Source: a virus (taxonomy: Duplodnaviria; Heunggongvirae; Uroviricota; Caudoviricetes). From it: 24,908 nucleotides of DNA. The stretch is taken from IMG/VR virus record IMGVR_UViG_2579778993_000003. The stretch is one strand, 5' to 3'. Positions 5,363 to 24,908 of the stretch are shown piece by piece. The notes below the pieces were generated by a model that saw nothing but the letters and a program-made list of their open reading frames with translations, made no database searches and was not told the origin of the DNA. A program made the position numbers and the translations under genes. How positions within the stretch are numbered: position 1 is the stretch's first letter; the number at the start of each line of letters is the position of its first letter.

Positions 5363-5439
5363 TGGCGCGTTGTACTGGATTCGAACCAGTGACCGATTGC
5401 TTAGAAGGCAATTGCTCTGTCCGGCTGAGCTAACAACGC
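5363..5439 (-). tRNA. tRNA-Arg (anticodon UCU)
   Basis: Manual cloverleaf on the minus strand: acceptor GCGTTGT/ACAACGC, D-stem GCTC/GAGC, anticodon stem ATTGC/GCAAT with loop CTTCTAA, T-arm ACTGG-TTCGAAT-CCAGT, discriminator G and encoded CCA. All stems perfect; 77 nt. Confidence 0.9.
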
Positions 5440-5452
5440 AGGATACAGATAA

Positions 5453-5529
5453 TGGACCGCCTTCGGGGACCCGAACTCCGCGCAACCAGCTTCGAAGGCT
5501 GGCGCTCTTTCCTGATGAGCTAATGGCGG
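5453..5529 (-). tRNA. Putative tRNA-Arg (anticodon UCG), slightly degenerate
   Basis: Cloverleaf fits with D-stem GCTC/GAGC, anticodon stem CCAGC/GCTGG with loop CTTCGAA, and encoded CCA. There is one mismatch in the acceptor stem (A-A), one in the T-stem (A-C), and an atypical T-loop TTCGGGT, so it may be a diverged or pseudo tRNA. Confidence 0.55.
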
Positions 5530-5536
5530 TATGTGA

Positions 5537-5612
5537 TGGTGGCCCTTGCTGGATTTGAACCAGCGACCTGGCGATTATGAGTCGCTCGCTCTCACCACTG
5601 AGCTAAAGGGCC
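5537..5612 (-). tRNA. tRNA with CAU anticodon (Met by anticodon; resembles the Ile2/lysidine-type ileX/ileZ class)
   Basis: Minus-strand sequence GGCCCTTTAGCTCAGTGGTGAGAGCGAGCGACTCATAATCGCCAGGTCGCTGGTTCAAATCCAGCAAGGGCCACCA folds as a 76-nt cloverleaf with one A-C mismatch in the anticodon stem. It closely resembles E. coli ileX as I recall it. Confidence 0.85.
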
Positions 5613-10231: not shown

Positions 10232-12496
10232 TTATACGGAAACTGGCACACGAGCAGGCAATGGATAGTGAGCCCAGTTATTAGCATTTAAAGCTCTTAC
10301 GCCATCAGCATAAACTTGTGTTTTTCCATCTAATGATTTTAAAGTTACTACAATAGTTACAGGTAAAGGCTCCATTAAGGCCGGTTCATTCGCTCTCAAC
10401 GTTGTTTTAGCTTGAAGAGCCCAGTTACCCGAAGTAATTCCTTTATTAAATGCCTTGCGATGAATTTTTACTGGTGACCACTTTCCACCATGCTCAATTT
10501 GAGCTCTCTCATATCCAGATTGACCGTTTTCTCCTTCCATAGGTACTTTTCCTTTTATAGTATTATTCTCAATTAAGCCAAAACTTAGCTCTACGTTCGC
10601 GCGAACATATTCACTGCCGGCATTAGGGTTCAGTGGTGGTGCATATGCAGCAGTAATTACAATCTCACCTTTAAATTTTCCATTTTGAATAAGTGCCGAT
10701 GGTATGGGATAGTTTTCCTTTCTCCACCTCACCCCAGGAACCAAGAATGTTTGGAAAATCAGAGTAAACCTATCATCACTATCATATAAGGTCTCAATAA
10801 CCTCATTAGGAATTCCCGCTCCCAAATAGCGTCTTTCACTTGGCGAGTAATCAGGAGAAGATAATTGAGCGGAATGAATTAATAATGCTTTAATCAATGA
10901 TGGTGAAACATTAAAGTCTGAATTAGTGGCTATTCTCTGCCATGTATGCGCAGCTAAACTTGCCACAATTGGAGCAGCAAAACTAGTACCAAAATTAGAG
11001 CAAAGCCTATTATCTGGCCCTACGACCTTTAAACTGCTTGCTCCTACATTCCAAGGTCTATGAACCCCACCGCCAGCATGGATTATATCTGGCTTTGGAG
11101 TAAATACAGGCCCAGGGCCACGACGAGTATATGGTGTCGGTGTTCCAATTTCACTTAAAGCATCATTAGCTTCCATATGAGAAACTGAACCAACTGTTAG
11201 TGCTCGGACTGACTCTCCAGGAGAGGAAATTAAATCAGCACCTCCAAGCGGATCAGGATTTGGCCATGTACGTATAGGTTCATCTACATAATTACCTGCA
11301 GCAACTACAAACAAAATACCAAATTTATCGCTGAGCCGATCTAACTCCATCGCAAAATCACTAAACATCTGCTCATTACATGGTCCGCCTCCCAAAGATA
11401 AATTCCAGACTTTTATATCTGGTCTTTTATTTACAGCATCTGCTAGCCTCAGAATTAAATCTGATATATAAGATCCATTTTCATCTAAAGCACAAACATC
11501 ATGGATTTTAGATTTTGTATCAGGAATCCATGGATGATTGTCATTTAAAAAATGAGCGCCTGATATCAATGAAGACACCATAGTCCCATGTTCATAACTC
11601 GTATCAGGAGGAATTACGTATGTTTCCCTACTCACTACCCAAGGAGTAATTGTTGCCGCGATGGGGCTTACCCCAGTGTCAAATACAGCAACAATGGGTA
11701 ATTCTTCTGATGGTACGGGAAAGCTATTTGTTTCAATGCCAACAGAATCACTTACACTAACCGGGAATGCTGAATATTTTGGTTCTGGAATTAACGTTCT
11801 TATACCCGGGTAATCAATGAGAATGTCTAATATATATCTATCATTTGGGGATAAATCCATTATCCTTAATAAGGGAAGACCACATTTTGGTCTAATCTCA
11901 TCATATTTAACTCCGTGTTGTTCTAATATAGAAATAACGTTTTCATAGTTGTTGTAAGTTGCATCTTCACCTGTGTACTCAAATAGTCGTACAAGGATGT
12001 TTGATGATTCAAACAAACCATCAGTGCCTCCTGGAACCTTCCTATTCTCATCCCAAGGTTCAATGCGCTCAATCGCGCTTAGATTAGCCAAAATCGCTTT
12101 AATATTCCGATGTAAAATGACTGACTCTAATACGTCAAAACAGCCGGCATGAGCAGCAACCAACATTTCATCTATTTTGGCATGACCGGCATTTTGCAAT
12201 CCAGCCTCTTGAGCAATTTTGTTCGGCCTATGCGTTTTGGCTATTCCCTGGTCTCTTAATTTGAAAACCAAAGTACCCAAGCTTCCAGGGTACTCTGAAA
12301 GTTTGGATTCTAAATAATGTTTACTGGTTGTTAAATTTCTTACTAGCCCTTGTCTATATTCGGCTGTTACATCAACCAATACCTTTGCCCCACCGCCAGC
12401 GTTTACTATTGCACCCAAGTCACTACTGGAAAAAGGGATTCTTAACATTGGGTTTGTAACTTTTGCGTTACTAAACTGTGTACCCCTTCTGCTCAT
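10232..12496 (-). CDS. Subtilisin-like serine protease (peptidase S8) with extra N- and C-terminal domains, 754 aa; protease component of an IetAS-like two-gene system
   Basis: Catalytic residues in subtilisin order: Asp in VAVFDTGVS, His in YEHGTMVSS, oxyanion Asn in VVAAGNY, Ser in GTSFAAPIVAS. ATG at 12494-12496 with a GGAG/AGGAG SD inside the 3' end of the upstream ATPase gene (26-bp overlap). A+T-rich relative to neighbouring prophage genes. Confidence 0.9.
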   Translation of the reverse strand: MSRRGTQFSNAKVTNPMLRIPFSSSDLGAIVNAGGGAKVLVDVTAEYRQGLVRNLTTSKHYLESKLSEYPGSLGTLVFKLRDQGIAKTHRPNKIAQEAGLQNAGHAKIDEMLVAAHAGCFDVLESVILHRNIKAILANLSAIERIEPWDENRKVPGGTDGLFESSNILVRLFEYTGEDATYNNYENVISILEQHGVKYDEIRPKCGLPLLRIMDLSPNDRYILDILIDYPGIRTLIPEPKYSAFPVSVSDSVGIETNSFPVPSEELPIVAVFDTGVSPIAATITPWVVSRETYVIPPDTSYEHGTMVSSLISGAHFLNDNHPWIPDTKSKIHDVCALDENGSYISDLILRLADAVNKRPDIKVWNLSLGGGPCNEQMFSDFAMELDRLSDKFGILFVVAAGNYVDEPIRTWPNPDPLGGADLISSPGESVRALTVGSVSHMEANDALSEIGTPTPYTRRGPGPVFTPKPDIIHAGGGVHRPWNVGASSLKVVGPDNRLCSNFGTSFAAPIVASLAAHTWQRIATNSDFNVSPSLIKALLIHSAQLSSPDYSPSERRYLGAGIPNEVIETLYDSDDRFTLIFQTFLVPGVRWRKENYPIPSALIQNGKFKGEIVITAAYAPPLNPNAGSEYVRANVELSFGLIENNTIKGKVPMEGENGQSGYERAQIEHGGKWSPVKIHRKAFNKGITSGNWALQAKTTLRANEPALMEPLPVTIVVTLKSLDGKTQVYADGVRALNANNWAHYPLPARVPVSV

Positions 12497-13625
12497 ATGC
12501 TCCTGACTCCTTCAGAATGTTTGAAATTACTCTTGATGTAAGTTTGTACAAATTAGCAAGAACTCTGATAGAAAATAATTTTTTATCTTTAGAACGTAAC
12601 CAACGAATTTCATCTTCGTAAGTGCTTAAATTTACACCTTCCATAAGCGATTGCGCAAGATACAAACGCCTATACAATTTATGGTGATTTATCACACTTG
12701 CACCTTCAATAACTGCATCCCTACGTGCATCCAAGCTCACCTGTTCAATTATTGCTCCGGATAATCCCTCCGATTTTCTTGATAAATCACTTAAATCTAG
12801 ATCGCTACATATCATATTCTTTAAACGATTTTTCCAAATTAACTCTCTCTGATGTATGTCAGGCAGAGGCATTGGAATTCTGAAGCTAAATCGCCTCCAG
12901 ATTGCAGGATCCAGAAGTTGCTCATGGTTAGTTGAGGCAATAATTACCGTATCCTCTGATGCCGCATCCATATTCTGCAATAGTGAAATGACAACTCGCT
13001 GAAGCTCACCTATATCTCTCTCATTACCTCTTGCTCCAGCTAAAGCATCAAATTCGTCTAAAAAAAGCACTGATGGCCTCTGCATTACATAATCGAAAAC
13101 CTGTCTAAGATTTTTGCTGGTTTGTCCCAATAAACTACTAATCAAAGTATCGCAACGCACTGTAAGAAGTGGAAAATCTAAGCGGGTAGCGATGTACTTA
13201 GATAACATAGTCTTACCTGTTCCTGGCTTTCCATACACGAGCATACGACTCGGCAATGCTGCATCAGCTTTAACAAACTCATCATAACGTTGAACATTAG
13301 TGATAAACTCTTCAACACGGGTACTGATTGCTGCAGGCAGAAAAATCTCTGAACTGTCTAATTTAGGATAACTGACATCAACAGTGTTGAGTCGACTATC
13401 AATATCTACCGGTAATGAGCCCAGAGATATCCCACCTCCAGCCCTTTGAGCTCCTGCCAACGCCTGGGGAGCTCTAAGCAACCTTTCTCTTATCATTCTG
13501 GCTTGCTTGACCTCCCCTTTTTGTTCGAGCTTATCTGCCAGCAACCCAGCATAATTACTAGCCATCGAAGCATTTGCCTTTGTTGCACCTTCAATGATTT
13601 TTAACACTTCTGATAAATAATCCAT
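12471..13625 (-). CDS. Classic AAA-family ATPase, 384 aa; ATPase component of an IetAS-like two-gene system
   Basis: Walker A GKPGTGKT, Walker B VLFLDEFD, and a second-region-of-homology-like segment ASTNHEQLLDPAIWRRFSF with sensor Asn and Arg fingers. ATG at 13623-13625 preceded by GGGAG with a 6-nt spacer, after an AT-rich ~190-bp leader. Confidence 0.9.
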   Translation of the reverse strand: MDYLSEVLKIIEGATKANASMASNYAGLLADKLEQKGEVKQARMIRERLLRAPQALAGAQRAGGGISLGSLPVDIDSRLNTVDVSYPKLDSSEIFLPAAISTRVEEFITNVQRYDEFVKADAALPSRMLVYGKPGTGKTMLSKYIATRLDFPLLTVRCDTLISSLLGQTSKNLRQVFDYVMQRPSVLFLDEFDALAGARGNERDIGELQRVVISLLQNMDAASEDTVIIASTNHEQLLDPAIWRRFSFRIPMPLPDIHQRELIWKNRLKNMICSDLDLSDLSRKSEGLSGAIIEQVSLDARRDAVIEGASVINHHKLYRRLYLAQSLMEGVNLSTYEDEIRWLRSKDKKLFSIRVLANLYKLTSRVISNILKESGAYEQKGYTV

Positions 13626-20095: not shown

Positions 20096-22567
20096 ATGAG
20101 TAAAGTCTTTATTTGCGCCGCCATTCCGGACGAACAGGCAATAAAGGAAGAAGGTGCCGTCGCTGTAGCCACTGCCATTGAAGCCGGTGATGAACGTCGC
20201 GCCCGCGCAAAATTTCACTGGCAATTCCTGGAACATTATCCGGCTGCTCAGGACTGCGCTTATAAATTTCTTGTCTGCGAGGATAAACCCGGTATACCCC
20301 GCCCTGCCCTCGATTCCTGGGATGCTGAATATATGCAGGAAAACCGCTGGGATGAGGAGTCTGCTTCCTTTGTCCCGGTTGAGACTGAATCCGATCCGAT
20401 GAACGTCACTTTTGACAAGCTGGCCCCTGAAGTACAGAACGCTGTCATGGTTAAGTTCGACACATGTGAAAACATCACCGTTGATATGGTTATTAGCGCA
20501 CAGGAATTGTTGCAGGAAGACATGGCAACATTCGACGGCCATATCGTTGAAGCGTTGATGAAAATGCCAGAAGTTAACGCCATGTATCCGGAGCTTAAGC
20601 TGCATGCCATCGGGTGGGTTAAGCATAAATGTAAGCCTGGTGCCAAATGGCCCGAAATTCAGGCAGAGATGCGCATCTGGAAAAAACGTCGCGAAGGTGA
20701 ACGCAAGGAAACCGGAAAATACACGTCTGTTGTTGATCTCGCCCGCGCCAGAACCAATCAACAGCACAGTGAAAATTCAACAGGAAAAATCAGCCCGGTC
20801 ATTGCTGCCATTCATCGCGAATACAAGCAGACATGGAAAACACTGGATGACGAACTGGCCTACGCTCTCTGGCCTGGTGATGTGGATGCCGGAAACATTG
20901 ACGGCAGCATCCATCGCTGGGCAAAAAATGAAGTTATCGACAACGACCGCGAAGACTGGAAGCGTATCTCGGCATCAATGCGCAAACAGCCTGATGCCCT
21001 TCGCTACGACCGCCAGACTATTTTTGGCCTTGTCCGTGAACGTCCGATCGACATTCACAAAGACCCTGTGGCACTGAACAAATACATTACTGGATACCTG
21101 ACTACAAAGGGCGTGTTTGAAGATGAAGGAAGAAATCAGAGCGCAACTGATACTCTCTCGTCGCCAGTACCAGAAACTGATGCAGTGGAAACGGCAATTC
21201 CGGGCAACGAAAAAACCGAATGCAAAGTGGAAGTCGAACCATCTGTAGAGCGTGAGGGGCCGTTCTACTTCCTCTTCACCGACAAGGATGGCGAAAAATA
21301 CGGTCGCGCAAACAAACTTTCTGGTCTGGAAAAAGCACTAGCCTTGGGAGCTACGGAAATCACAAAAGAGGAATACTTCGCACGTAAAAACGGCACGTAC
21401 TCAGGTTCACAACAAAATACTGGTGCATCTGACACGACCGCACAACCAGAGCCGGTAAAAGTTACCGCTGACGAAGTAAACAAAATTATGCAGGCAGCCA
21501 ATATCAGCCAGCCTGACGCCGATAAGTTGCTTGCTGCCTCTCGCGGAGAATTTGTTGCAGGGATTAGCGACCCGAATGATCCGAAATGGGTAAAGGGGAT
21601 TGAAACCCGCGATTCTGTAAACCAGAACCAGCAAGAATCGGAACAGAACGACCAGAAAGCGGAACAAAACAGCCCAAATACGCAACAAAACGAGCCAGAA
21701 ACGAAACAACCTGAGCCAGTAGCGCAACAGGAACCGGAAAAAGTCTGCACCGCCTGCGGTCAAAGCGGTGGCGGCAACTGCCCTGATTGTGGCGCGGTGA
21801 TGGGTGACGCAACATACCAGGAAACATTCGATGAAGAGAATCAGGTTGAAGTTCAGGAAAATGATCCGAAGGAAATCGAAGGCGCTGAACATCCACACAA
21901 GGAGAATGCTGGTAGCGCTCAGGATCACGCCAGCGATAGTGAAACTGGCGAGACGGCAGATCCCTTAATTGCGATGAACGGTCATCACGTTATCACATCC
22001 ACCAGCAGGACGTGTGACCATCTAATGATCGACCTTGAAACCATGGGAAAAAATCCTGATGCCCCGATTATCTCAATAGGTGCAATATTTTTCGATCCGC
22101 AAACCGGAGATATGGGACCGGAATTTAGTAAGACTATCGATCTGGAAACTGCTGGCGGAGTCATTGATCGTGACGTCATTAAAAGGTGGCTGAAGCAATC
22201 ACGTGAAGCGCAGTCTGCCATTATGACCGATGAAATCCCGTTAGATGATGCACTGTTACAATTGCGGGAATTTATCGACGAAAACTCCGGTGAATTTTTT
22301 GTTCAGGTCTGGGGAAATGGAGCCAACTTCGACAACACGATTTTGCGCCGTTCATACGAACGGCAGGGGATCCCCTGCCCGTGGCGTTACTACAACGATC
22401 GCGATGTACGCACAATCGTTGAGCTGGGGAAAGCCATAGACTTCGATGCCAGAACGGCTATTCCATTCGAAGGTGAGCGCCATAATGCACTTGATGACGC
22501 CCGTTACCAGGCAAAATACGTTTCAGTTATCTGGCAAAAACTGATCCCGAATCAGGCTGATTTTTAA
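20096..22567 (+). CDS. Large prophage exonuclease (823 aa) with C-terminal DnaQ-like DEDDh 3'-5' exonuclease domain, Q/E-rich linker and CxxC...CxxC zinc-ribbon-like motif
   Basis: ATG at 20096. C-terminal motifs Exo I ([10 protein letters not shown]), Exo II ([12 protein letters not shown]) and Exo III ([14 protein letters not shown]). Low-complexity linker [41 protein letters not shown] followed by [16 protein letters not shown]. It occupies the recE position of Rac-like prophages, but no recT-like gene follows. Confidence 0.8.
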
Positions 22568-22631: not shown

Positions 22632-22880
22632 ATGGCAAGACTTATTCTGCTCACTGAGTGGGCAAAAGAGGAATTCAGTGAACCGGTCCCAACTCCGAGT
22701 ACGTTAAGTAAATACGCTAAAGCCGGAATGATATTTCCTCTCCCCAAAAAAGTTGGAAGACGCTGGCGAGTGGATCCGCAAGCTCGCTTTGTCGGAATGG
22801 TAAACAAGCCGGAGGTGATCGCCACAGATCACCCTGCTTTGAAGAGGATACTGGAAGATGGCGCGCCCGCGAAAATATAA
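22632..22880 (+). CDS. Excisionase / AlpA-like small DNA-binding protein
   Basis: 82 aa, basic, immediately upstream of and overlapping (23 bp) the integrase gene, the typical xis-int arrangement. Family assignment is by position and size. Confidence 0.55.
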   Translation: MARLILLTEWAKEEFSEPVPTPSTLSKYAKAGMIFPLPKKVGRRWRVDPQARFVGMVNKPEVIATDHPALKRILEDGAPAKI

Positions 22881-23988
22881 AACCAATGTTCCGGGATTAT
22901 CTCCGTATTTTGACAAAAGAAATAACAAAGTTTACTGGCGTTACAGGCATCCCATAACAGGCAAAAATCACGGTCTCGGCAGTATTGACCAGAAACTGGC
23001 AGAAACTATTGCAGCAGAAGCGAACAGCCGTCTTGCCCGGCAGCAAATGGAACAAATGCTCAGTCTGCAGGAGAAAATTATTAGTGATACCGGCGGTTCA
23101 TCAACCGTTACCATTTTTCTGAATAATTACAGAAAAATTCAACAGGAAAGATATGAAAACGGCGAGATCAAACTCAACACGCTGAAACAGAAAGCGGCTC
23201 CTCTCAGGGTATTTGATGAACGTTTTGGCACCAGACCGTTAGATGCCATAACCGTAAAAGATGTGGTATCAGTACTGGAAGAGTACAAGGCCAGAGGACA
23301 TAACAGAATGGGACAAATTTTCAGGAAGGTACTGATCGATGTTTTCCGGGAAGCTCAGCAAACGGGCGATGTCCCGCCAGGCTTTAACCCTGCAGAATCG
23401 GCAAAAAAACCGCAGGTGCGGATATCAAGACAGCGACTGACTTTTGATGAGTGGATGATGATTTATAACGCAGCGGAAAAGGATGGTTACTTTTTACAGC
23501 GCGGTATGCTGCTGGCACTGATGACAGGCCAGCGCCTTTCAGATATTTGCAAAATGCAATTTTCGGATATCCGGGATGGTTATCTTCATGTCGAACAGCA
23601 AAAAACAGGAACCCGGATTGCCATCCCTCTGGCTCTGCGTTGCGATAAATTAAATCTCACCCTGGATGATGTGGTGTCATCCTGCCGCGATTGCGTTCTT
23701 AGTCCGTGGCTATTGCACCACCATCACGCGAAAGGGACAGCTAAGCGCGGCGGGATGGTTAAGCCAGCAACATTAACCGTTGCATTTAAAAAAGCCCGGG
23801 ATTCTGTGGATTACAACTGGCGTGCTAATGGCACCCCTCCCTCTTTCCATGAGCAGAGATCTTTATCAGAGCGATTGTTCAGAGAGCAGGGGGTTGATAC
23901 CAAAATTTTGCTAGGCCATTCGAATCAAAAAATGACCGATATTTACAACGACGCACGCGGTAAGGAATGGAAAAAACTGGTCATTTGA
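22858..23988 (+). CDS. Tyrosine site-specific integrase
   Basis: 376 aa with tyrosine-recombinase boxes: TGQRLSDI (box I Arg), HEQRSL (His-x-x-Arg) and LLGHSNQKMTDIYN (box II with catalytic Tyr). Adjacent to the prophage/host junction beside ompW. Confidence 0.9.
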   Translation: MARPRKYKTNVPGLSPYFDKRNNKVYWRYRHPITGKNHGLGSIDQKLAETIAAEANSRLARQQMEQMLSLQEKIISDTGGSSTVTIFLNNYRKIQQERYENGEIKLNTLKQKAAPLRVFDERFGTRPLDAITVKDVVSVLEEYKARGHNRMGQIFRKVLIDVFREAQQTGDVPPGFNPAESAKKPQVRISRQRLTFDEWMMIYNAAEKDGYFLQRGMLLALMTGQRLSDICKMQFSDIRDGYLHVEQQKTGTRIAIPLALRCDKLNLTLDDVVSSCRDCVLSPWLLHHHHAKGTAKRGGMVKPATLTVAFKKARDSVDYNWRANGTPPSFHEQRSLSERLFREQGVDTKILLGHSNQKMTDIYNDARGKEWKKLVI

Positions 23989-23995
23989 TGACCAG
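23971..23995. terminator. Palindrome (CTGGTCAT ttg ATGACCAG) overlapping the integrase stop codon; functions as a terminator, most clearly for ompW on the minus strand
   Basis: Perfect 8-bp stem at 23977-23995, flanked by A6 (23971-23976) on one side and TTTT (23996-23999) on the other. The int stop TGA (23986-23988) is in the loop. Confidence 0.55.
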
Positions 23996-24030
23996 TTTTG
24001 CAGAGGGGTTTTGCAGAGGTTTTGCAGAGA
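23995..24030. repeat. Three tandem copies of GTTTTGCAGAG(G) at the prophage/host junction (candidate att or integrase-binding repeats)
   Basis: gttttgcagagg (23995-24006), ggttttgcagagg (24007-24019) and tttgcagaga (24021-24030), between the integrase 3' end and the ompW stop. Confidence 0.5.
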
Positions 24031-24033
24031 AAA

Positions 24034-24672
24034 TTAAAAACGATATCCTGCGGAGAACATAAACACCCACGGATCCAGTCGTACCGAGTCTTTTACGGTA
24101 GTAACACCAGATTTGTACTTAGCCGTGGTATCGATATCCATGTACCACACTGACATGTTAACCAACCAGTCACGGTTAATCAGATAATCAACCCCCACCT
24201 GCCCGGCAGCTCCCCAGGAATCTTTCAGACTGAGATCGGAAAGCCCTGCCTCTTTGCCATGATCGTTAAATCCATTATCAAAGAAGGTGGTGTAGTTAAT
24301 ACCTGCCCCAACGTAAGGACGGAATTTGCTGCTGGCATCACCAAAATACCACTGCGCCATCAGTGTTGGTGGCAGATGATGAACGGTTGCAATATCGCCG
24401 GTCGCCCGGGTGCCGATTTTATGGCGGAACGGCGTCGCTGCCAGTAATTCCACACCAATGTTGTCGGTCGCCATATAAGTAAACGTAAGGCCCAGTTGCG
24501 TGTTATTGGTCACGCTGAATCCACCCAGACTTCCTAACGTACCACCAGCACCTTCTGTTGGACGTACGGTTGCAGAACCTGCACGCATAAAAAATTCGCC
24601 TGCTTCATGCGCAAAGGCACTGCCAGAGAGAAGAGTTGTTACTGCCAAAGCCGCCACTGTTAATTTTTTCAT
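24034..24672 (-). CDS. ompW: Outer membrane protein W (8-stranded beta-barrel)
   Basis: 212 aa; signal peptide MKKLTVAALAVTTLLSGSAFA followed by HEAGEFFMRAGSATVRPTEG... and a C-terminal ...WVFMFSAGYRF beta-barrel signature. Recognised as E. coli OmpW from memory. Confidence 0.9.
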   Translation of the reverse strand: MKKLTVAALAVTTLLSGSAFAHEAGEFFMRAGSATVRPTEGAGGTLGSLGGFSVTNNTQLGLTFTYMATDNIGVELLAATPFRHKIGTRATGDIATVHHLPPTLMAQWYFGDASSKFRPYVGAGINYTTFFDNGFNDHGKEAGLSDLSLKDSWGAAGQVGVDYLINRDWLVNMSVWYMDIDTTAKYKSGVTTVKDSVRLDPWVFMFSAGYRF

Positions 24673-24767
24673 ATCCGCTCCGTCGTTATGGTTATAAAAA
24701 CGTGACGAATATACCTACATTGGAGTAACAAATGATCCTACATAGATCACATTACATATGATAATTC

Positions 24768-24908
24768 GGTAATGACTCCAACTTATTGATAGTGTTTTAT
24801 GTTCAGATAATGCCCGATGACTTTGTCATGCAGCTCCACCGATTTTGAGAACGACAGCGACTTCCGTCCCAGCCGTGCCAGGTGCTGCCTCAGATTCAGG
24901 TTATGCCG
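24768..24908 (-). mobile_element. IS1 insertion sequence, IRR-proximal end (element continues beyond window end)
   Basis: GGTAATGACTCCAACTTATTGATAGTG... from 24768 matches the IS1 right inverted repeat as I recall it; the following sequence encodes the InsB C-terminus on the minus strand. Confidence 0.85.
24783..24908 (-). CDS. insB: IS1 transposase InsB, 3' end (5'-partial at window edge)
   Basis: Minus-strand translation of 24908-24783 gives ...[41 protein letters not shown] followed by a stop (TAA, complement of 24783-24785), overlapping the IS1 terminal repeat. Confidence 0.8.

Follow-up and report, generated by a model that had tools for sequence, protein, structure and literature searches.

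The window analyzed here, a stretch of 24,908 nucleotides taken as a whole, carries an excisionase gene adjoining the gene of an arm-domain tyrosine integrase, which converges on ompW (Table 1). The Pfam search matched the integrase to Arm-DNA-bind_1 (PF09003, E = 1.2e-21, residues 2-71) and Phage_integrase (PF00589, E = 1.3e-16), while the ompW product of 212 amino acids gave a full-length Pfam match. Between the last base of the integrase ORF (23988) and the ompW stop codon, which reads TTA on the + strand at 24034-24036, there are 45 bp and not 46 bp as given in the first-pass annotation of this DNA. The three tandem repeats of about 12 bp described there were recovered as three exact copies of GTTTTGCAGAG at 23995-24029, with start-to-start spacings of 13 and 11. 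The perfect 8-bp palindrome described beside them is real but longer, namely a hairpin with arms AAAACTGGTCAT (23973-23984) and ATGACCAGTTTT (23988-23999), each of 12 nt and 100% complementary, around a 3-nt loop. The int stop codon TGA (23986-23988) reaches from the loop into the right arm, of which it takes up the first base, and this arm shares 5 nt with repeat 1.

Table 1. Genes and attR features at the integrase-ompW end of the window.
Feature	Position	Strand	Basis
xis, excisionase, 82 aa	22632..22880	+	Pfam Exc PF07825, E = 1.3e-7; annotated excisionase in TUM14664, xisE in PPompW records
int, lambda-family tyrosine integrase, 376 aa, N-terminal arm-DNA-binding domain	22858..23988	+	Pfam matches
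Hairpin AAAACTGGTCAT-TTG-ATGACCAGTTTT, overlaps int stop codon; probable bidirectional intrinsic terminator	23973..23999	.	Folding, conservation in relatives
R1, candidate arm-type site GTTTTGCAGAG, P' arm	23995..24005	+	Exact match, conservation
R2, candidate arm-type site GTTTTGCAGAG, P' arm	24008..24018	+	Exact match, conservation
R3, candidate arm-type site GTTTTGCAGAG, P' arm	24019..24029	+	Exact match, far-arm copy
121-bp imperfect att duplication of PPompW prophages, attR copy	24032..24152	.	95/121 identical to K-12; published attL/R (PMC8112680); repeat_region in LC567822.1
Phage-borne substitute ompW 3' end (stop and last 30 codons)	24034..24124	-	Comparison of attP, attL and K-12
28-bp block GTGGTATCGATATCCATGTACCACACTG, core region	24125..24152	.	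Identical in attP, attB, attL and attR
Host-derived ompW part, 5' 520 bp	24153..24672	-	Alignment to empty site

Prophages of the PPompW type have been described in STEC and EPEC (Nakamura et al., 2021, PLoS Pathog, PMC8112680; GenBank LC567818-LC567841), and their att was published as a 121-bp attL/R in ompW (PMC8112680). In a tblastn comparison, the integrase encoded here was 99.7% identical to the PPompW intE product over residues 1-376, which lies above the family cut-off of >90% identity and >90% coverage. Moreover, the DNA is 100% identical to PPompW GenBank records over 23600-24160 (561 bases), and the 121-bp ompW duplication, at 24032-24152 with its second copy beside yciE, equals the repeat_region in LC567822.1. 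Judged from these matches, the prophage is a PPompW-type lambdoid prophage, the same element as published, although it carries other cargo, e.g., iteAS, and resides in a non-STEC-looking host strain (TUM14664). The earlier view that a phage had integrated at the 3' end of ompW was thus borne out by the lambdoid prophage found there, for which attL, attR, attB and attP could be compared. Of 5426 complete E. coli genomes, 1715 (about 32%) gave a match that spans both the int 3' end and ompW and covers at least 80% of the query. The original description defined the att duplication and makes no mention of arm-type sites, a hairpin or a change in the OmpW C-terminus (PMC8112680).

The hairpin at the int stop is probably a two-way intrinsic terminator that the phage supplies to ompW, a reading less certain than that of the repeats discussed below. 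On the ompW-sense strand, its folding energy is -17 kcal/mol (z = -5.95), which none of 200 shuffles equalled. The stem of 8 bp is extended by 4 A-U pairs and followed by U6 in the ompW direction and by U4 in the int direction; against a terminator speak its mere 4 G-C pairs and the competition of the A/U extensions with the U-tract. A scan of 23700-24300 for consensus promoters and terminators flagged nothing on either strand, so that the case for a terminator is built on folding and comparison. The first-pass suggestion that the palindrome with its A-run ends ompW transcription is plausible in the light of the U6 tract and the folding score, but found no echo in the consensus scan. Relatives in Kluyvera and Raoultella, with an int that is 67% identical, have retained 93-100% of the hairpin sequence, and other family members as well as phage 21 carry an A-run and a GC hairpin on the same strand past the repeats. 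Alternatively, the palindrome might terminate int only, or be a protein-binding palindrome, with no part in ending ompW transcription. This would be in line with its overlap with the int stop and the U4 downstream on the int strand, with the -21.3 kcal/mol obtained when it is folded with its flanks, with the null result of the terminator scan on both strands and with a non-ompW relative (L016) in which a degenerate hairpin still pairs on the int strand only. However, the ompW strand has the longer U-tract, and wherever the stem varies in the ompW-linked set, at three positions, the bases still form G-U pairs in the ompW sense but are mismatched in the int sense; this strand-specific pattern comprises these three positions and no compensatory double changes, the left arm being constrained also by coding for the integrase C-terminus. 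Furthermore, the hairpin stays by the repeats in L013 and L017 although a 1.45-kb insert parts it from int, and no further hairpin was found between the ompW stop and int, where an alternative ompW terminator candidate would have to lie. On balance, we regard a function restricted to int or to protein binding as unlikely, albeit with enough in its favour to be given some weight.

Within the 24.9-kb window, GTTTTGCAGAG at up to one mismatch occurred at just these three sites as compared to 0.67 expected, and three matches were reached in 3 of 100 shuffles when counted anywhere in the window and without requiring clustering; TRF reported a period of 11 with 2.9 copies and a score of 54. The TTTTGCAGAG cores were near-invariant among six attR variants, with one change (in STEC1589), and most changes fell in spacer bases. 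In Kluyvera, Raoultella and one further Enterobacteriaceae genome, the three TTTTGCAG cores are 96-100% identical and the 13/11 spacing is constant, as compared to 63-67% identity for int DNA and just 32-40% for the neighbouring ompW loop-coding DNA. When viral contigs were scanned for the pattern, 55 of the 80 hits had the triplet 7-25 nt past the stop codon of a lambda-type integrase; the other 25, without an integrase ORF ending just upstream, were mostly coding tandem repeats in unrelated contigs, with a few family members truncated or parted from int. Grouping of the 55 hits and four further sequences below 90% identity yielded at least 18 integrase groups that carry the triplet, with many and different downstream targets. 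The diversity of this set came from the DNA pattern scan and not from the integrase search of viral contigs, in which nearly all matches were 99-100% identical copies cut at the int end.

With regard to their function, the repeats most likely represent three integrase-binding sites of the P' arm, as read from their placement and conservation. A fourth copy, GTTTTGCAGAA, is located at the far prophage end (L003, 14874-14884), 120 bp past the core and in the same orientation, and is the only motif match with up to one mismatch in 47 kb of that end. Copies of the motif, which is unrelated to the core, are therefore present in both attP arms, three on the int side and one on the far side. The heavily diverged PPompW far arm still keeps the fourth copy together with an adjacent IHF-like AATCA[AG]NNNNTTA. 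The IHF consensus scan detected one WATCARNNNNTTR match in the far arm beside the fourth site, kept in two diverged arms. On the int side, none was found from the repeats to the core, although the repeats lie 96-130 bp from the core and a DNA bend would be needed to reach it, a point that speaks against the arm-site reading. Contigs in the attP form carry a further exact GTTTTGCAGA 177-355 bp downstream. Moreover, among the 18 groups and phage 21 the motif co-varies with the arm-binding domain of the integrase and not with the target site. Mean identity in the motif-sharing set is 74% for the arm-binding, 51% for the core-binding and 60% for the catalytic domain, whereas phage 21 Int, which has the motif TTTTGGGGAA, shares 54% with the set in the arm domain and 58% in the catalytic domain, in the latter being as close as the members are mutually. 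These data define an arm-site motif, TTTTGCAG, with three copies at 13/11 spacing and one distal copy, shared by at least 18 diverged enterobacterial integrase lineages, which could aid the annotation of prophage ends and the prediction of att sites. A full-text literature search for TTTTGCAG with 'arm-type' retrieved nothing. As a design only, TTTTCGTC was devised as a substitute for the TTTTGCAG core at R1-R3.

It is improbable that the repeats bind another protein, such as a regulator of int expression, Fis or another host factor, or the excisionase. The prophage does encode an excisionase, and lambda Xis also binds direct repeats near att (X1/X2). The lambda Xis sites, however, are found in one arm only, whereas the motif occurs in both attP arms; in addition, its conservation tracks the arm-binding domain of the integrase, and three tandem sites by int are the pattern of lambda P'1-P'3 and of phage 21. 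Still less credence can be given to an action as RNA, in which the repeats and the hairpin would form a phage-supplied ompW 3' UTR or a small RNA derived from it, with the CUCUGCAAAAC repeats binding a regulator or target. A lysogen would indeed transcribe the repeats as an ompW 3' UTR ending in a stable hairpin and U6, and the variation in the stem keeps pairing on the ompW-sense strand. Yet the triplet is conserved behind integrases with unrelated targets and in attP-form contigs, the fourth copy lies across the core and outside the ompW transcript, and a permissive Rfam search of 23700-24300 gave no match at E ≤ 1, which likewise counts against it; a role as RNA could be at most secondary to that of integrase-binding sites. 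The small RNA svsR/C0293 was rejected as a candidate since svsR is located at the cI 3' end, away from att (PMC12803456).

The repeats, for which the first-pass annotation had offered no function, have no part in the phage/host join itself. The first-pass annotation had placed this junction at 23971-24036; all but the last 5 bases of the interval are phage-only and unchanged in the free-phage attP, and the comparison of attL, attR, attB and attP ruled out a junction inside it. Two checks proposed there were run: the uninterrupted ompW locus does not contain 23971-24031, and the att repeat sought at the other prophage end was found as an ompW 3' remnant, which in the same genome is a 126-bp pseudogene (attL) adjoining yciE. 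Hence, neither of the outcomes named there as counter-evidence, an identical uninterrupted locus or a missing att repeat, was obtained. Homology to the empty site begins at 24032, and this left edge is all that the interval contains of the 121-bp imperfect duplication. Phage and host differ by 26 mismatches from 24052 to 24124, the last one at 24124, in comparison with the native remnant at attL and with K-12. The sole block identical among attL, attR, attB and attP, as determined by three-way alignment and comparison with attP, is 24125-24152, which lies 90-120 bp to the right of 23971-24036 and within the ompW coding sequence. As judged from this alignment, strand exchange must occur in 24125-24152, inside ompW, and of the 121 bp of the published att duplication, 28 bp are left for the crossover. 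The inverted repeat GTGGTA/TACCAC within the block might represent core-type integrase sites. In phage 204576 (CP025907.1), the predicted attP is unbroken and has all four motif copies together. The view that the repeats and the palindrome are the att core itself, where phage and host are joined, is hardly credible: the left edge of host homology does fall inside 23971-24036, but empty sites are without all of 23971-24031, the attP of the free phage has this stretch in unaltered form along with the phage-borne ompW end, and both the mismatches and the block of common identity lie outside it. Practically no likelihood is left for functionless slippage products in a non-coding spacer, since the repeats, although short, tandem and non-coding, have kept their cores and spacing where int and the ompW loop-coding DNA diverged, and recur behind 18 diverged integrase groups.

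As the phage supplies the ompW 3' end, the OmpW C-terminus is phage-derived. This had been raised as a possibility before, and is confirmed by the presence of 24034-24124 in the free-phage attP and by 7 amino-acid differences from K-12, all of them in the phage-borne segment and all in the last surface loop; from the solved E. coli OmpW, the protein likewise differs in this segment only. According to the comparison of the att sites, integration restores a full-length ompW ORF from a diverged phage copy, leaving the native end as the attL pseudogene. The phage-borne segment codes for the stretch from the end of beta-7 through the last surface loop and beta-8 of a protein with 8-strand topology (PMC10833342). 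A single-sequence AlphaFold model of OmpW was useless and discarded (pLDDT 28), and the loop placement therefore rests on the alignment to the solved structure and the published topology. The loop cassettes differ among PPompW lineages; E. coli-type elements have four or more versions, including one with 5 additional residues, and the loop-coding DNA is 62-65% identical between phages with int sequences that are 93-96% identical. This may point to PPompW lysogeny as a surface conversion, in which the last extracellular OmpW loop (beta-7/beta-8) is swapped for the phage version, an idea we consider rather doubtful. Native ompW alleles vary in the same last loop, and the phage copies may therefore merely sample natural alleles without a selected effect. 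If the loop swap were selected, it could alter recognition of OmpW by the TraN-alpha conjugation adhesin, colicin S4, OmpW-dependent phages or antibodies. Since about one third of complete E. coli genomes have the integrase beside ompW, OmpW in these presumably ends in phage-made, loop-altering DNA, which is of relevance to users of OmpW as conjugation receptor, vaccine antigen or typing target.

The model we propose combines a PPompW-type attR end, arm-type repeats and a phage-supplied ompW end with its terminator, and as a whole we consider it likely; it builds on what was observed of the att sites, on the finding that the ompW end comes from the phage, and on how the motif is conserved and distributed. 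In the circular phage, attP consists of int, the hairpin at the int stop, three GTTTTGCAGAG copies, the diverged last 91 bp of ompW, the 28-bp core and an AT-rich arm with the fourth GTTTTGCAGA. The integrase would recombine the core with the identical 28 bp in chromosomal ompW, which encode the conserved VWYMDIDT, and in the integrated state the host ompW is intact with its last 30 codons phage-made, the native 3' end being a pseudogene beside yciE. The N-terminal domain of the integrase is proposed to bind the three P'-arm repeats, and these, together with the fourth site in the far arm, would link arms and core within the recombination complex, like lambda P'1-P'3 and P1/P2. The hairpin with its flanking A and T runs would end int transcripts and, in the lysogen, ompW transcripts about 65 nt past the stop, thereby sparing int and xis antisense read-through.

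The attP of lambda contains the arm-type sites P1, P2 and P'1-P'3, sites for IHF, Xis and Fis, and tI/sib. The integrase studied here belongs to the same family as that of lambda (36.7% identity, Arm-DNA-bind_1 domain), and in both systems a xis-int operon reads toward att, with three adjacent arm sites on the int side and one or more in the other arm. By contrast, the arm motif of lambda is unrelated to that found here, its attB lies between genes, has a core of 15 bp and restores no gene of the host, and its tI/sib is placed beyond att instead of at the int stop. Because the ompW fragment intervenes, the arm sites of the present system are farther from the core than those of lambda. A prophage at the ompW site and its 121-bp att have already been published, arm-type sites and a supplied terminator are textbook lambda-type features, and the system is in this respect ordinary and largely known.

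The closest named integrase is that of phage 21 (50.5% amino acid identity), whose attP/Int/icd system was reportedly described by Wang et al. in 1997, in J Bacteriol 179:5705. The insertion site of phage 21, too, is within the 3' end of a protein-coding gene, for which the phage brings a replacement end, and a terminator is present on the host-gene strand. Its subsites, taken from the GenBank annotation of record OL657228.1, are three in number and directly past int, followed by the terminator and then an icd pseudogene; they are tandem and 11-13 nt long, with spacings of 13 and 12 as compared to 13 and 11 here, and the fourth copy found in the present analysis lies about 117 bp past the phage 21 core as compared to 120 bp here. 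The terminator of phage 21 is situated between the subsites and the gene fragment, whereas the sole hairpin here is on the int side and overlaps the int stop. Furthermore, phage 21 targets icd and has the arm motif TTTTGGGGAA (YYTTCCCCAAAA), as opposed to ompW and TTTTGCAGAG (GTTTTGCAGAG), and its arm-binding domain is specifically diverged (54% vs. 74% within the TTTTGCAG set). Taken together, the att of PPompW works like that of phage 21, but with a different specificity.

The interval between the integrase gene (int) and ompW contains all the features that the first-pass annotation had listed for it (see the table below), including a palindrome that is real and bigger than had been stated. 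Tandem Repeats Finder (TRF) described the repeats with a period of 11 and 2.9 copies, and with at most one mismatch allowed, the window contains the motif at just these three places, as compared to 0.67 expected.

Features of the interval between int and ompW (positions in the window)
Feature	Position	Strand	Remarks
Exact repeat GTTTTGCAGAG, three copies	23995-24005, 24008-24018, 24019-24029		Start-to-start distances 13 and 11
Inverted repeat (hairpin), arms AAAACTGGTCAT / ATGACCAGTTTT	23973-23984 and 23988-23999		Fully complementary, 3-nt loop
Integrase ORF	22858-23988		TGA stop extends across the hairpin loop into the first base of the right arm
ompW ORF	24034-24672	minus	Its end lies 45 bp from the int end

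The stretch 23971-24036 had been proposed as the junction between phage and host; instead, this stretch makes up the attP arm on the int side, with the crossover block located at 24125-24152. When window 23700-24760 was compared by megablast with 5,426 complete E. coli genomes, the full query, comprising the int end and ompW, was matched in 1,715 genomes, and in the others the match began only at query base 333, i.e., window 24032. In the uninterrupted K-12-type site, ompW is adjoined directly by yciE and the yciE terminator, and no counterpart of 23971-24031 was found there. The genome of strain TUM14664 is 100% identical to the window, and its far prophage end, about 51 kb distant, carries a 126-bp pseudogene ("OmpW family, missing N-terminus") that directly adjoins yciE. 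A three-way alignment of attR (the window end), attL (the far end) and the empty site revealed that attL follows the native sequence as far as ...CCACACTG with phage DNA beyond, that attR is phage DNA through 24124 with a native match after that, and that only one block, GTGGTATCGATATCCATGTACCACACTG (24125-24152), is the same in all three. The segment 24032-24124 resembles native ompW only partially: the whole 121 bp has 95 matching positions and 26 mismatches, which are spread over 24052 to 24124. The alignment thus implies that a diverged version of the ompW 3' end is carried by the phage itself and that the crossover must fall inside the 28-bp block. Exactly the predicted attP is held by the free-phage record Escherichia phage 204576 (CP025907.1), in the order int, hairpin, three repeats, ompW fragment, core and the phage arm as at attL. 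The view that the phage sits at the ompW 3' end and supplies the end of the gene, perhaps together with the terminator, was essentially right.

The 28-bp core contains an inverted repeat, GTGGTA...TACCAC, around 12 bp with the palindrome TATCGATA in the centre, and these elements are candidates for the overlap region and the core-type integrase sites. In OmpW, the block corresponds to the conserved motif VWYMDIDT, a possible reason why the site can be used across genera. Escherichia albertii NBRC 107761 (L012, 2600-2900) shares with the window everything from int through hairpin, repeats and ompW fragment to the core, but its DNA past the core belongs to neither ompW nor the phage arm, pointing to a rearrangement or a secondary site.

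The prophage family and its att sites are both known: these elements were named PPompW and their 121-bp attL/R in ompW was determined previously (Nakamura et al., 2021; PMC8112680). PPompW GenBank records, in which the duplication is annotated, are 100% identical to the window across 23600-24160; the att anatomy described here is already published, and assigning the arm sites adds to it in a routine way, with a feature of known kind. Elsewhere, the prophage carries two genes on the minus strand (10232-13625), one S8 subtilase-like (754 aa) and one for an AAA ATPase (384 aa), annotated in the identical RefSeq genome as the anti-phage pair IteS/IteA. Three consecutive tRNA genes are found at 5363-5612 (minus strand), namely Arg(tct), Arg(tcg) and a CAT-anticodon tRNA called Met by ARAGORN but Ile in RefSeq. 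An 823-aa ORF at 20096-22567 (plus strand), annotated as 3'-5' exonuclease, has a long acidic, glutamine-rich low-complexity middle, and the ORF is overlapped by several spurious opposite-strand ORFs.

The integrase combines a lambda arm-DNA-binding domain (Pfam PF09003, E = 1.2e-21) with a tyrosine recombinase catalytic domain, and an Exc-family excisionase gene lies before its gene. Integrases with this domain make-up bind short arm-type sites in both attP arms. A fourth copy, GTTTTGCAGAA, is present in the same orientation 120 bp past the core, as the only match with at most one mismatch in 47 kb around the far end, and it is also found in the intact attP. In PPompW_132418 the far arm is heavily diverged, but GTTTTGCAGGAG is kept at equal distance, adjoined by a conserved IHF-like AATCA[AG]NNNNTTA. 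The TTTTGCAGAG cores hardly vary among six E. coli attR variants, with one change (STEC1589), and the bases between them hold most changes. In relatives from Kluyvera, Raoultella and another Enterobacteriaceae genome, DNA identity is 63-67% for int and just 32-40% for the loop-coding part of ompW next to the repeats, but 96-100% for the three TTTTGCAG cores, at unaltered 13/11 spacing; one of these relatives (L016) lies elsewhere than at ompW and still keeps the triplet. Moreover, of 80 hits in a pattern scan of viral contigs, 55 had the triplet 7-25 nt past a lambda-type integrase stop codon. Grouping of the integrases from these hits plus four further sequences (groups below 90% identity) yielded 18 groups that carry the triplet, with many different C-termini and downstream sequences; attP-form contigs have one further exact GTTTTGCAGA 177-355 bp downstream. 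Mean identity in this set was 74% for the arm-binding, 51% for the core-binding and 60% for the catalytic domain, as expected if its members share one arm motif and differ in their cores. Judged from these sequence comparisons, the repeats are very probably arm-type integrase sites.

The hairpin folds with -17 kcal/mol (z = -5.95) on the ompW-sense strand, where UUUUUU follows it; on the int-sense strand it is followed by UUUU. A simple terminator scan did not flag the hairpin. Only four of its stem pairs are G-C, and the U-tract has to compete with the A/U extensions, a usual trait of two-way terminators. No other hairpin was found between the ompW stop and int. The hairpin is 93-100% conserved in Kluyvera and Raoultella elements; in phage 21 and several further members of the family, the repeats are accompanied on the same strand by an A-run and a GC hairpin. 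In Kluyvera georgiana (L013, 2690-3610) and Enterobacter bugandensis (L017), the hairpin remains attached to the repeats, of which the locus is readable as far as repeat 1, despite a 1.45-kb insert that parts it from int. This insert contains a 306-aa ORF with no Pfam match, a cargo gene inside the att arm. Across seven distinct hairpin variants, each of the three variable stem positions gives a G-U pair in the ompW-strand RNA (100% of cells paired) and a mismatch on the int strand (92.9% paired); this pattern, from three sites and with no compensatory double changes, is only suggestive of a role on the ompW strand. Taken together, the hairpin probably serves as phage-supplied ompW terminator and int transcript end, which would prevent antisense transcription into int/xis.

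OmpW from the window is full length (212 aa; Pfam OmpW 1-195/195) and departs from the solved E. coli OmpW (2MHL, 2F1T) at seven residues only, ANYKLGGAQQHDS to AKYKSGVTTVKDS, all within the phage-borne segment, which confirms the anticipated phage-derived C-terminus. OmpW is the receptor for colicin S4. Furthermore, it serves TraN-alpha of plasmid R100-1 as the receptor on the recipient, and forms an eight-stranded barrel with extracellular loop 1 between beta-1 and beta-2 (PMC10833342); by strand alternation, the beta-7/beta-8 connection, the last loop and the place of the seven changes, should also be extracellular. Other PPompW lineages have other loop versions, with five additional residues in STEC1589. 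Loop-coding DNA is 62-65% identical between elements with 93-96% identical int, and the 40 bp at 24085-24124 diverge far faster than int or the remaining ompW fragment. A long loop is also encoded by the native ompW allele of E. coli strain 131, which is prophage-free; natural variation thus exists in this loop, and the copies carried by the phages may simply be samples of it. Upstream, the end of an IS1 copy (24768-24908) starts 95 bp before the ompW start codon, where K-12 continues as ACCCTTTATTGATCTGGATTAA...; ompW is thereby cut off from its upstream regulatory DNA, and its expression may be altered in this strain.

The closest named relative of the integrase is phage 21 Int (50.5% identity). 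In the phage 21 record, "attP ... 3 subsites P1P2P3, consensus YYTTCCCCAAAA" is annotated straight after int, followed by a terminator and an icd pseudogene comprising the last 53 codons. On the int strand the subsites read GTTTTGGGGAAGG three times with a spacing of 13 and 12, and a fourth ATTTTGGGGAAAG lies about 117 bp past the icd fragment end. Thus, the architecture is alike, whereas the arm motif is different. This is in accordance with the arm-binding domain of phage 21 Int, which shows only 54% identity to the TTTTGCAG set, whereas its catalytic domain is as near to the set as the set members are to one another.
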